From Treponema sp. (GTDB lineage: Bacteria; Spirochaetota; Spirochaetia; Treponematales; Treponemataceae): a stretch of 64,000 nucleotides of DNA. Under the pieces are notes generated by a model that saw nothing but the letters and a program-made list of their open reading frames with translations, made no database searches and had not been told where the DNA came from. Below are positions 6,233 to 64,000 of this stretch, piece by piece. The stretch is from assembly GCA_017935745.1 (NCBI GenBank), contig JAGBGX010000016.1, positions 831 to 64,830 of the forward strand. Direction: 5' to 3'. The stretch's first letter is position 1. Every line of letters starts with the position of its first letter. The position numbers and the translations under genes were made by a program.

Positions 6233-7039
6233 TTATAACGGGAACGGCTTCTTTCTGAGGATTTCAAGGACGCCTTTGTCTGCTCCAAACGGAACAATGC
6301 TTGGCTGCTCATACACCGGGCTTATGACGATGCCAAGGTCAAGGCAGTGAATCAAAAATTCCCGATACCGCTCCTGCGGAACTTTCGGATGCAGGTACGG
6401 CCCCGTGCGCTCCCAGTACGGCACAACAGCCTTGTCGTATATGAACCAGTCTTTTTCCTGCCGCTCCTGAATTGCTGCAATAAGGTTGTACAGCGAGCGG
6501 GCAACGGCAGCTTCAACAGGAGACGGAAGCTTTATGTTTCTTTTAAAAGCGCCGGGATTTTCATGCGCAAGCTCATCCTTCACTGCAAGAATAAAAATTC
6601 CGCTTGTCCACGGCAGCGGCGGCTCAAGCATAATGCAGTCAATGCTGTCAAAGTCAACCTGGGCTGCCCATGGCTTCCAAAACAGCGTGCTGTGCGGACT
6701 TATGGACAGAGCGCAGGAAAGGCAGTCCTGCCTGTGCGAAAACAGAAAGACACAGCGGTGCGCGCCGAAAAACAAGCTGCTGTTAAACAGACTGTTTACT
6801 GCCTTTTCCAGACGGCCGGAAAAACAGGTTTTAAAGCTTCCCGTTGCGCCGCGGTCAAGCGCATTTTTCAGCATAGTGAAGGCAGAACTTCCGCCCCAGC
6901 CTAAAATGGCCCGCCCGTTTTCCTGATACAAGTCAGTCAGCCGCCGCCCCTTCTGTGTATACAAAAACGGCCCGCGCGCACGCTTTACATTTCCGTAGCG
7001 GAGAAAAACAGCTTCCGCTAAAAAATCAGTTTCATTCAT
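6233..7039 (-). CDS. Hypothetical protein, degenerate PLP-aminotransferase-like
   Basis: RARGPFLYTQKGRRLTDLY resembles class-III aminotransferase N-termini; protein is short (268 aa). Confidence 0.6.
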   Translation of the reverse strand: MNETDFLAEAVFLRYGNVKRARGPFLYTQKGRRLTDLYQENGRAILGWGGSSAFTMLKNALDRGATGSFKTCFSGRLEKAVNSLFNSSLFFGAHRCVFLFSHRQDCLSCALSISPHSTLFWKPWAAQVDFDSIDCIMLEPPLPWTSGIFILAVKDELAHENPGAFKRNIKLPSPVEAAVARSLYNLIAAIQERQEKDWFIYDKAVVPYWERTGPYLHPKVPQERYREFLIHCLDLGIVISPVYEQPSIVPFGADKGVLEILRKKPFPL

Positions 7040-35225: not shown

Positions 35226-35275
35226 GAAAAAGTTGAAACCAGATTACCCCCCCCCGCCATTTTGTCAAGCATTTT
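35226..35275 (-). promoter_or_regulatory. Poly-G promoter block, copy A
   Basis: TTGACA-AAATGGC-G9-TAATCT (spacer 16); 36 bp (35240-35275) identical to 38441-38476. Confidence 0.8.
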
Positions 35276-59950: not shown

Positions 59951-60226
59951 ATGAAAGCGGAGGCAAGAATGCAAGGTACATTCACAGTCAGAAAAGACGA
60001 ACTAACAATAGACTTTCTGAAAAGTCTGAAGAAAATGTTCTCTGGAAATGTCCTGGATATTACAGTCAGCGACAATTTTGACGGCTCATCGGAATCGCAA
60101 ACCAAAACAGACATGGACGAAACGGAATATCTTTTGAGCAACCCGGCGAATAAGAAATTTCTGCTTGACGGAATTGCAGAAATCGAAAAAGGCAACGTCA
60201 AAAAAATCGAACTGGAAGCGTTATGA
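59951..60226 (+). CDS. Antitoxin partner of YoeB (YefM-like C-terminus, atypical N-terminus)
   Basis: DETEYLLSNPANKKFLLDGI; overlaps the toxin start. Confidence 0.75.
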   Translation: MKAEARMQGTFTVRKDELTIDFLKSLKKMFSGNVLDITVSDNFDGSSESQTKTDMDETEYLLSNPANKKFLLDGIAEIEKGNVKKIELEAL

Positions 60227-60486
60227 TTACAATAATCGCTTTTTACAAAACTGCCTACGAAGACTACAACGTCTGGGAAGAAACTGACAAGAAAATATTC
60301 AAACGCATAAAAGAACTCATCAAAGACATTTCCCGCAATCCGTTTGAAGGAATCGGAAAACCGGAGCCGCTCAAACACGAACTTTCCGGCTACTGGTCCA
60401 GAAGAATAAATGACGAACATAGAATTGTTTACAAGATTACCGACAATATGCTGTACATTCTTTCTTGCAGGGAGCATTACAAATAA
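60223..60486 (+). CDS. yoeB: Txe/YoeB-family addiction-module toxin
   Basis: AYEDYNVW..TDKKIFKRIKELIKDISRNPFEGIGKPEPLKHELSGYWSRRINDEHRIVY...SCREHY. Confidence 0.95.
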   Translation: MITIIAFYKTAYEDYNVWEETDKKIFKRIKELIKDISRNPFEGIGKPEPLKHELSGYWSRRINDEHRIVYKITDNMLYILSCREHYK

Positions 60487-60854: not shown

Positions 60855-61305
60855 TCATTCTTTGCTCCGAATTTTTATTACCCGGCAGGGAACGCCCGCA
60901 CAAACCGAATTATCTGGCAAATCTTTATTCACTACGCTGCCCCCCAATGCACACAAAGTCCCCAATCGTTACAGGCTTGCAGACAAGCGTGTTCATGCCG
61001 ATAAAACAGTTGCTCCCGATGTGTACTTCACCGACATCATAGGAAAGTGTTGCGGGATTATAAAAATGAGTAAGAATTTTTGTTCCGCTGGTAATAGTTG
61101 TGCCGTCCCCTACAAAAATATGATCCGGATACAAATCATCAAACAGGACAGAATGCCCGATAAAGCAGTTTTTCCCGATGTGAATGCCTGTAAGGCGCAG
61201 CAGCTTTACTCGCAGTGCGCTTGTCAAAAAGAACGACTTATAGCACCATGCAAAAATAAATCGGCGCAGGAATCGGAAAAGGTTATATTGTCTTGTTGCT
61301 GTCAT
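60855..61305 (-). pseudogene. Hexapeptide-repeat acyltransferase frameshifted at a G6 tract
   Basis: IGDFVCI-G6-C then, in another frame, GSVVNKDLPDNSVCAGVPCRVIKIRSKE*; G8 (or G5) restores the frame. Confidence 0.85.
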
Positions 61306-61467: not shown

Positions 61468-61665
61468 GTGAAAAGCTATTCTTCACGGGAAGTCATAAAA
61501 CTGCTCAAAGAAGACGGCTGGTACGAAGTTGACTGCACAGGCTCCCACCACCAGTTCAAGCACCCGTCAAAACCCGGAAGAACAACTGTCAAGCATCCTG
61601 ACAAGGATATTCCTCCGAAAACGCTTCGCAGCATTGAGCGGCAGAGCGGACTGAAATTTGAATGA
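61468..61665 (+). CDS. hicA: HicA-family toxin
   Basis: SSREVIKLLKEDGW...GSHHQFKHP...TTVKHPDKDIPPKTLRSI. Confidence 0.95.
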   Translation: MKSYSSREVIKLLKEDGWYEVDCTGSHHQFKHPSKPGRTTVKHPDKDIPPKTLRSIERQSGLKFE

Positions 61666-61674
61666 GGTGAAGCA

Positions 61675-62082
61675 ATGAACAGCGAGCGGATTTTTTATCC
61701 AGCGGTATTTACCTACGAAGCCGGAAAAGAAATTGCTGTTGAGTTTCCAGACCTTGGCTGCGCGACTTCCGGCGTGAACGAAGATGATGCCTTTCTTTCC
61801 GCAAGGGAGCTTTTGGGCTGTGTCATATTCGGCCTTGAGCAGGACGGAGAAGCAATTCCAAAGCCTTCCCGGCTTTCCGACATCAGGACTGAATCCAATG
61901 AGCGAGCAGTCCTTGTTGATGTGTATATGCCTGCCGTCCGGCTCGCGCACGAAAACAAGTCCGTAAGCCGGACAGTAACAATCCCCTCATGGCTCAATGC
62001 GCGCGCGCTGGCGGAAAACATCAACTTCAGCCAGGCTCTTCAAGAAATCCTCTGCCGCAAGCTTGGAGTTCTAACTGAATAA
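61675..62082 (+). CDS. hicB: HicB-family antitoxin
   Basis: YPAVF...VEFPDLGCATSG...IPKPS...VSRTVTIPSWL...NFSQALQE. Confidence 0.95.
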   Translation: MNSERIFYPAVFTYEAGKEIAVEFPDLGCATSGVNEDDAFLSARELLGCVIFGLEQDGEAIPKPSRLSDIRTESNERAVLVDVYMPAVRLAHENKSVSRTVTIPSWLNARALAENINFSQALQEILCRKLGVLTE

Positions 62083-62269: not shown

Positions 62270-63367
62270 TCACCTTAATTCTCCAAATAAATCAAAAAAT
62301 CTTTTCTCATAGTGTTCCAATGTCAGGTACGAACAAAATGCATTCCTTGCCAGTTTTGAATAATCAGCAAGCAAATTCACATTATCTACAAAAAATTCTA
62401 TTGCAGTTACAAATGACATATCATCATTCGGCTTTATTGTTCTGGAAAAGGTTTCATCAAGAATTTCGACTGCACCTCCGTTGTCTGTGGTTATTACCGG
62501 ACGGGAAAACATCATTGCCTCAAGAACGGTAGTCGGGAAAGGGTCGGACATAAGGCTTGGAACAAGAACTACATTTGCGGATTTATACATTTCATCAATA
62601 TTCTGTGAAAAATCATGTACTGAAACTAGTCCTATCAAATTTTTCGATTTTACATCATCTTGCAAACGTGCATACAATTCAGGTTTAAATGGCGGCGCAC
62701 TTCCGAACAAATCGATATGAATTTTTCTTTTGTATTCTTCAGGCAATTTATGTAAGGCTGACAGCAAAAACCACTGCCCTTTCTGCGGCATAAAACGTCC
62801 CGGAAGAACAAAACGGATTTTTCCATCAGAATTGATTTTGTTTTCCAAAAAAACAGCAGCTATATCCGGGATTCCGTTATGAACAACTGGATACTTTCCA
62901 GAAAAAAACAAATTCTGTTTTACATGTTCTGAAACGCACACAACTTCATTCGCTCCTGTTTTAGCAAGAAAGGAAAAACCAAAATTCAAAAATGTATTTG
63001 AAATAATTTCATGCACATATAAAACACGTTTTCTTGAAAAATGTGCAAATAAAAGAAGCACTGTTGCCAATGTGTTGCAGAAACAGTAATCAAACTTCTT
63101 TCCTGAAAACAATCTTCTGCACTGAAAAATTTTAGACGGGAGCTTCACATAGTCAAGCAGCTTCAATTTAGAATGAACAATCGGAAGCTTCGCAAAAATT
63201 TTTATCTCTATTTTTGTAGAAATTGCTTTTATGTACTCAACAAGAACTCCATCTTTAGGAAGGAGGACAGTTATCTCATGCTTTGCATTCAGCATTTTGA
63301 GCATATACAGCATTATTTTGTCGGCACCATAAAGCTCAACAGACGGATGCACAAAAAGCAACTTCAT
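62270..63367 (-). CDS. GT4 (GT-B) glycosyltransferase
   Basis: HPSVELYGAD, YVHEI, VVHNGI, GRFMPQKGQ, PSLMSDPFPTTVLEAM. Confidence 0.92.
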   Translation of the reverse strand: MKLLFVHPSVELYGADKIMLYMLKMLNAKHEITVLLPKDGVLVEYIKAISTKIEIKIFAKLPIVHSKLKLLDYVKLPSKIFQCRRLFSGKKFDYCFCNTLATVLLLFAHFSRKRVLYVHEIISNTFLNFGFSFLAKTGANEVVCVSEHVKQNLFFSGKYPVVHNGIPDIAAVFLENKINSDGKIRFVLPGRFMPQKGQWFLLSALHKLPEEYKRKIHIDLFGSAPPFKPELYARLQDDVKSKNLIGLVSVHDFSQNIDEMYKSANVVLVPSLMSDPFPTTVLEAMMFSRPVITTDNGGAVEILDETFSRTIKPNDDMSFVTAIEFFVDNVNLLADYSKLARNAFCSYLTLEHYEKRFFDLFGELR

Positions 63368-63900
63368 TTAACAACGCTCCTTGATTTTTCTAGCCGGGAC
63401 ACCTGCATATACGCAATTCGGTTCAGTTGATTTTGTAACGACTGCACCGGCACCGATTACACAGTTATCAGCAATCTTTATATTTCCAATCACAATGGAA
63501 TGAACTCCCATATTCACATTATCACCTATTACAGGAACTCCAAAATTACCAGCACCAATCACCCCCCCCGAATTACAAGATTTTTACCAATCTCAGTCTT
63601 TCCATTTATTACAACCCCTGTACAATGATGAATTACAAAACCACCACCAATTCTTGTTCTTGAAGGAATATCACAACCATTCTTTAATGAGATATATCTG
63701 TATAAAAATCGCTCCATACAATAAATTGGAAACAATACTTTTTTCGTCCGAAGAAACTGACACAATCTAAAATGAAAAACTATTTTAAATTCACGTAAAG
63801 TTAAAAACAAAAAGAAAAAATTTATTTTCTCTCTACCAAGTTCTATTCTCCATGCTTCCTTATCACTATTTAATAAATCCAAAAATTCAAAAAACTTCAT
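63368..63900 (-). pseudogene. Serine-acetyltransferase-like (LbH) O-acetyltransferase frameshifted at a G8 tract
   Basis: IGGGFVIHHCTGVVINGKTEIGKNLVIR-G8-TGA; continuation VIGAGNFGVPVIGDNV...IGAGAVVTK...YAGVPAR is in another frame; G9 or G12 restores it. Confidence 0.88.
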
Positions 63901-64000
63901 TTAACACTTCCTCATTACTTAGAAAATACAGTTTGATAAGCCAGTAAACTTTCTGGTGCTGAAAAAAAGGCATACTTCAAGATATTCAGTAAATAACAAC

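Follow-up and report, generated by a model that had tools for sequence, protein, structure and literature searches.

An out-of-frame poly-G tract in a putative polysaccharide O-acetyltransferase gene of a metagenome-derived Treponema: a candidate contingency locus

The acetyltransferase gene and its neighbours

The gene discussed here belongs to a polysaccharide locus of the Wzx/EpsG type near the end of a 64,000-nucleotide stretch of Treponema DNA (hereafter the window), which lies on contig C20 of a 20-contig genome (G000) of 2.64 Mb and 48.4% GC. It occupies positions 63368..63900 on the minus strand, encodes a CysE/WcaB/EpsC-like LbH acetyltransferase, and is out of frame at a run of eight guanines. 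This run (G8, at 63562..63569; C8 on the plus strand) is flanked as C-G8-TG and falls at the Gly-Gly(-Gly) corner of one rung of the beta-helix. Across it the coding strand reads CTT GTA ATT CGG GGG GGG TGA, with the stop immediately 3' of the run. An earlier note on this DNA had proposed that ATT-C-G8-TGA ends the frame, and this is borne out. A 5' ORF of 113 codons (63559..63900, minus strand, with its TGA at 63559-63561) covers the N-terminal helices, the first coils of the beta-helix, and Asp77/His92, and is followed by a remainder of 64 codons in the next frame (63368..63562, minus strand). The remainder opens with a GTG that overlaps the TGA, and the resulting GTGA (63559-63562) has, in the G8 state, the geometry of termination-reinitiation. 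A Shine-Dalgarno-like GAGGAAG, read from the sequence at 63907..63913 on the minus strand, precedes the acetyltransferase ATG by 6 nt.

A slippage-prone repeat inside the ORF dictates the reading frame by its length. When the length of the run was altered in silico, the G9 allele gave a protein of 177 aa (…NLVIRGGVIGAG…), as had been claimed before, G12 gave one of 178 aa (…IRGGGVIGAG…), and G6 one of 176 aa; G7 and G10 were out of frame like G8. The G8 run is the sole lesion of the gene, both halves of which are open and conserved, and the ribosome-binding site is present.

Some enzyme might conceivably be made in the G8 state, either at full length, through transcriptional or ribosomal slippage at the run, or in two pieces, through reinitiation at GTGA. 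The overlap of the TGA with the GTG that opens the 3' frame lends itself to such recoding, as does the capacity of the G run to pair with the anti-Shine-Dalgarno sequence. However, the spacing from a G-run Shine-Dalgarno to the GTG would be only 0-2 nt, and folding of a beta-helix made in two pieces is improbable. We consider recoding speculative, and hardly credible as an account of this gene. A separate candidate, an internal promoter at the tract (TTGTAA-11 nt-TGATTG), was rejected on the grounds of a spacer that is too short, a poor -10 box, and a scan that returned no notable match.

Directly downstream lies an intact GT4 glycosyltransferase gene of 365 aa (62270..63367, minus strand; Glycos_transf_1, 1.3e-23, and Glyco_transf_4), the ATG of which comes straight after the acetyltransferase stop, in agreement with the placement given in the earlier note. 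An AAGGAG within the 3' end of the acetyltransferase gene (63378..63383, minus strand) provides the GT4 gene with a ribosome-binding site of its own. In related loci (L021, L022, L023, and L026 versus L020, L024, and L025) the GT4 gene is called at 365 aa on some contigs and at 341 aa, from a later start, on others. The order EpsG (364-366 aa), acetyltransferase (178 aa), GT4 (365 aa), and DUF1972 glycosyltransferase recurs in at least three other lineages, with the acetyltransferase intact. In the present locus the genes for the IspD-like cytidylyltransferase, the Wzx flippase, LicD, GT2, GT4, and the DUF1972 glycosyltransferase are all intact.

Two further genes of the locus are broken. Directly upstream of the acetyltransferase, and running past the end of the window, is an EpsG-like (Wzy-type) gene on the minus strand (64745-65839 of contig C20, equivalent to 63915-65009 in window coordinates), split into pieces of 142 and 213 aa. 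Set against the intact homologues of L024 and L020, the gene shows one additional T within a run of T (T8) and one G fewer (GGG as against GGGG); the two indels are 47 nt apart, with TAA and TGA stops between them. These lesions leave the EpsG-like gene dead, and its repair would need two independent reversions, of which one would have to occur where there is no repeat. The other broken gene encodes a second hexapeptide acetyltransferase (60855..61305, minus strand), which is out of frame at a G6 run (C6 at 60940-60945). Here G8 would be the canonical length (IGGGSVV), and G5 would be in frame and one residue short. A homologue from another sample (L027:6613-7068) has a run of G9 in the corresponding position (6975-6983) and is in frame.

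Three of the ten or so genes of the locus are thus broken, and both acetyltransferase tracts are below their canonical length. A dead EpsG-like gene together with a second acetyltransferase that is out of frame makes decay of the locus a serious rival explanation. By this account the acetyltransferase would be a fixed pseudogene, whose tract either slipped a single time or shrank from a longer in-frame run, and switching would be over. The two lesions of the EpsG-like gene and the G6 of the second acetyltransferase, two short of its canonical G8, speak for it; the ribosome-binding sites of both the acetyltransferase and the GT4 genes, as well as the integrity of all the other locus genes named above, speak against it. 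We regard a fixed pseudogene as a real possibility, albeit not the one that we favour. On the state of the locus as such, contracted switches that are burning out fit at least as well as a switch that is poised.

Toxin-antitoxin pairs of HicA/HicB-like and YoeB type (61468-62082 and 59951-60486) sit on the opposite strand between the glycan genes. These insertions suggest a mosaic glycan locus that is prone to exchange.

Family, fold, and the rung that carries the tract

The read-through protein matches Pfam Hexapep (2.6e-07) and Hexapep_2. Against the NCBIfam models it scored 92.3 for EpsC (cut-off 150), 70.9 for cysE (cut-off 210.65), and 66.1 for WcaB (cut-off 196), and passed none of them; it belongs to the family at large, and no named enzyme can be called its equivalog. 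Among solved structures it matches the serine acetyltransferase (SAT) 6wye (E 1.7e-15), and its D77-I-P and H91-H92-C-T-G align with the D-I-H and D-H-A-T-G of the catalytic loop of solved SATs. His92 is unchanged in all 79 homologues. The structure was predicted for a homologue (P0004) that is 68% identical, with an alignment of 79 sequences, and not for the broken protein of the window itself. In the model (pLDDT 96.6) residues 3-73 are helical and lead into a beta-helix, and its best 50 matches in the PDB are all serine acetyltransferases (TMq 0.78-0.83). The predicted fold is accordingly SAT-like, with an N-terminal helical domain and an LbH domain. GGG 112-114 of the model makes up the turn that links strand 109-111 to strand 115-117.

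The assignment made in the earlier note, to a hexapeptide/LbH acetyltransferase of CysE/WcaB/EpsC type in a glycan locus, is therefore upheld by the Pfam, NCBIfam, PDB, and fold matches. WcaB (of colanic acid synthesis), EpsC, and CysE are the best family and fold matches, and the catalytic Asp/His loop is conserved with them. Unlike CysE and other SATs, however, the protein has 177-178 aa, is without the full SAT N-domain and C-tail, and is encoded in a glycan locus; a true CysE was ruled out by this length, the sub-threshold scores, and the locus context. Since the placement between the EpsG and GT4 genes is conserved in four lineages, we infer that acetyl is transferred to a sugar hydroxyl; both the "O-" and the acceptor are drawn from the family and the placement in a glycan locus. 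So read, the gene would encode a strain-variable polysaccharide O-acetyltransferase.

Intact homologues of 175-178 aa were found at 59-68% identity in a collection of 5.8 billion proteins, which held no in-frame version above 68% identity. Forty related genomes contained no orthologue, their best matches (39% identity) being longer CysE paralogues; a longer CysE-like paralogue is also present elsewhere in the same genome. A protein search of the genome contig collection returned nothing beyond one distant actinobacterial match.

At the site of the tract the homologues use the codons AGA GGA GGA GGG TGT, CGT GGA GGA ACT GTG, or AGG GGG AGC, none of which contains a homopolymer. By this comparison the G run is a derived state, built of G-rich codons at the Gly-Gly(-Gly) corner. 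The stretch measures 11 nt here and 15 nt in the homologues, a shortfall of 4 nt that speaks for a fixed pseudogene. The consequence for the protein may be gauged from the distance between a conserved Asn and a conserved Gly of the rung, which is 11 residues in 79/79 homologues (down to 26% identity). The G12 form has the same 11 residues and aligns with 6wye across the rung without a gap, whereas the G9 form has 10, a length seen in 0/79 homologues. The period-6 aliphatic ladder that runs through the 3' part of the protein is likewise kept at the tract rung with G12 only. The earlier claim that G12 also restores the six-residue repeat is thereby substantiated, and the rung of G9, one residue short, makes the nearest in-frame allele structurally non-canonical, the canonical G12 being four insertions away. 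That the one-step allele has a rung length without precedent among the 79 homologues adds to the case for a fixed pseudogene.

The sequence beyond the frameshift weighs on the other side. All 64 codons can be read without a stop, and with 62-78% identity to the homologues they are conserved at least as well as the 5' part (54-69%); the stretch 3' of the lesion is free of decay.

Another lineage bears a scar at the same corner. In the gene for homologue P0005 (L027:5001-5534) we noted a compensated pair of indels, -2 at the Gly-Gly codons and -1 about 20 nt later, which leaves eight codons out of frame (IRGSCDWGNNN) while a 177-aa ORF is kept. This pair indicates that the Gly-Gly corner is an indel hotspot in that lineage too.

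Poly-G tracts across the genome and their lengths

The tract is one of many. Counts of G/C runs in the whole genome are bimodal, with 407 runs of five bases, 21 of six, 2 of seven, 35 of eight, 44 of nine, 2 of ten, and 1 of twelve. Runs of at least eight bases number 82, where the extrapolated decay of the shorter-run counts would lead one to expect fewer than one. The window itself holds nine overlapping G8 matches against 0.65 expected from dinucleotide shuffles, of which 0/100 reached nine, and all five of its runs of at least eight bases have G on the minus strand. The flanks are also shared: among the 80 runs that lie away from contig ends, the 5' base is C in 63, the 3' base is T in 58, and 41 read C-Gn-TA. 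Some 24 runs take the form TTGACA-N7/8-Gn-TA, and constitute sigma-70 promoter spacers preceding lipoprotein genes.

Other tracts, of G8-G10 and in a mixture of in-frame and out-of-frame lengths, are intragenic (C3:23768; C12:133905 and 137294; C9:83401; C16:270904; C13:228690 and 229476; C13:52018). The genes at these positions encode an RM enzyme of MmeI type (out of frame), a pair of N6/N4 DNA methylases, two AT3 membrane acyltransferases (one in frame and one out), a further hexapeptide acetyltransferase, and proteins resembling BNR/sialidase and trypsin-like protease; the gene for an outer-membrane protein has an intragenic tract as well. This set of genes is classic phasome content, and the methylases are candidates for phasevarions. 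The acetyltransferase lesion falls exactly in a class of tract that the genome maintains about 80 times, which tells against a fixed pseudogene, as a lesion of this class is still revertible. The mismatch repair genes mutS and mutL are intact, so that rates of slippage need not be high. Across the genus Treponema the abundance of such runs varies from 1 to 134 overlapping matches, and in the literature searched we found no description of tracts of this kind in gut or environmental Treponema.

The earlier note had drawn attention to an IRGG context common to the acetyltransferase tract and that of the outer-membrane protein. The resemblance is there, and extends to LVIRGG in both and to 8/10 matching upstream bases; it is within chance, which would by itself yield about 1.3 such pairs among 80 tracts. 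The R-G-G of both results from the C-Gn flank being read as CGG GGG GG. A copied LVIRGG cassette was rejected on that chance expectation, the flank occurring in no other tract.

Evidence on length variation at the acetyltransferase tract comes from a narrow sample. One and the same set of eight contigs carries the 113-aa piece, the 64-aa piece, and also the GT4 protein, and all eight encode the exact G8 products. The contig that was aligned (Logan, SRR12529200) matches C20 at 100% identity over 9,098 bp, G8 included; this is a single strain, and the eight G8 calls are for this reason not independent observations. Among these eight contigs, from one strain and with no independent strain that has the gene, no other tract length was seen; the exact flanks with a variable run gave 0 matches in the genome contig and metagenome contig collections. 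Records related through other genes of the window belong to the SRR125291xx-2xx run series or to a METAG scaffold. Many Logan contigs stop at repeated promoter blocks.

The presence of G8 in every available assembly is what a fixed pseudogene would give. Homopolymers are, on the other hand, error-prone, and the source is apparently a metagenome assembly (a record is labelled METAG); a true tract of G9, miscounted in sequencing or assembly, would leave the gene intact. Yet an independent k-mer assembly (Logan, SRR12529200) and other contigs repeat the G8, the G6, and the EpsG lesions, and the other tracts of the genome mix in-frame and out-of-frame lengths instead of being uniformly one base short. 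With independent assemblies in agreement, we judge a miscount to be very improbable.

Indirect signs of mutability come from elsewhere, among them the G6 and G9 of the second acetyltransferase and its relative, and the indel pair of L027. A promoter tract at 35247-35255 has nine C in the window, but C8 was found in a contig of a different study (L035:119, SRR34718483) that encodes an identical MgtC-like neighbour, and repeated elements within the genome differ as G8 against G9. Individual isolates of T. pallidum show poly-G tracts of 7 to 11 G (PMC7864442).

A candidate switch and its known counterparts

The interpretation that we favour, with a probability of about 0.58, is that strand slippage at a poly-G tract of contingency type shifted the frame of a polysaccharide O-acetyltransferase gene, which is seen here in its OFF state. 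Three observations argue for a contingency tract: the 82 runs where fewer than one is expected, their location in surface, glycan, and RM genes and in lipoprotein promoters, and the run-free codons of the homologues. Under this interpretation the gene would encode a small cytoplasmic sugar O-acetyltransferase that serves the Wzx/EpsG-type polysaccharide locus. This lineage would have come to write the Gly-Gly(-Gly) corner of the rung as a G run, prone to slipped-strand mispairing, and the tract would thereby have joined a genome-wide class of about 80 slippage-prone G8/G9 runs. At G8 the ribosome would meet the TGA after the tract and release a stub of 113 aa, which has the catalytic Asp/His loop and is without the last coils. 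As these coils form the acetyl-CoA site and the trimer contacts in this fold, the enzyme would be off and the sugar unit would be left unacetylated by it. Gain of one G (G9) would reopen the frame with a rung one residue short, and G12 would give the canonical protein. The population would then in fact switch between states, and the G9 protein may be active.

The earlier note had taken the gene to be phase-variable, and this claim fares unevenly. The large set of G8/G9 contingency-type tracts in the genome and a gene that is otherwise intact sustain it; the uniform tract length among the eight contigs, a G9 rung length unseen in the family, and the broken neighbours do not. Consequences for recognition by antibodies or phages, which the note cited from other bacteria, are putative for this gene and are drawn from its family and context.

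A more elaborate proposal, which we think rather unlikely, would make the tract a graded device of three states and the Gly-Gly corners of LbH acetyltransferases recurrent sites of poly-G switches. G8 would be OFF, G9, with its five-residue rung, may have altered activity or specificity, and G12 would be canonical. The tract studied here, its sister gene (G6 in this genome and G9 in a relative), and the indel scar in L027 fit the Gly-Gly-corner part of the proposal. On the three-state reading, contraction of the tract would be a route by which poly-G switches burn out.

Should the tract prove to switch, acetylation of a surface polysaccharide in a non-pallidum Treponema would vary by the device with which pathogens evade antibodies and phages, the tract being one of some 80 throughout the genome, and the biology of contingency loci would extend to commensal spirochaetes. 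A caution attaches to such readings. Where a single slip seems to separate a tract from ON, the canonical enzyme may lie four slips off, and neighbouring genes are already dead. A tally that takes frameshifted tracts for phase-variable genes can, for these reasons, overstate a phasome.

The mechanism that we propose is that of known phase-variable glycan O-acetyltransferases; the non-pallidum host and the position of the tract inside a structural rung set this gene apart. The nearest counterpart in fold is NeuO, a polysialic-acid O-acetyltransferase of the LbH type from the E. coli K1 prophage CUS-3, in which out-of-frame repeat lengths lead to a truncated, inactive protein (PMC3046976). Both are LbH glycan O-acetyltransferases whose frame is set by a slippage-prone intragenic repeat (PMC3046976). 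The repeat of NeuO is a heptanucleotide just past the start codon and encodes a dispensable N-terminal extension, whereas that of the Treponema gene is a mononucleotide G run. As this run is placed inside a structural rung of the beta-helix, its in-frame lengths are not equivalent, unlike those of NeuO. Switching of NeuO has, moreover, been demonstrated, while that of the Treponema acetyltransferase is a proposal.

Phase-variable O-acetylation of glycans through intragenic repeats is also known from oafA of H. influenzae and from lot3 and pglI of Neisseria, and the ON and OFF states alter recognition by antibodies (PMC10505976, PMC9558356). These genes likewise encode enzymes of surface-glycan O-acetylation with simple repeats inside the coding sequence. 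They differ in that their products are membrane AT3 (or AT3-SGNH) proteins and not LbH proteins, and in that the repeat of oafA is a tetranucleotide. The AT3 genes with G8/G9 tracts in this Treponema genome are closer counterparts of oafA, lot3, and pglI.

Within the genus, G runs of about 8-10 in the promoters of tprE/G/J, tprL, and tp0126 of T. pallidum vary within isolates and set the expression of surface proteins (PMC7864442). These best-studied tracts act on transcription through promoter spacing, whereas the acetyltransferase tract would act through a translational frameshift; the host here is a non-pallidum, metagenome-derived Treponema, and the frameshifted gene encodes a glycan-modifying enzyme. 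The promoter-spacer position of the T. pallidum tracts is the one taken by the 24 or so lipoprotein-promoter tracts of this genome.
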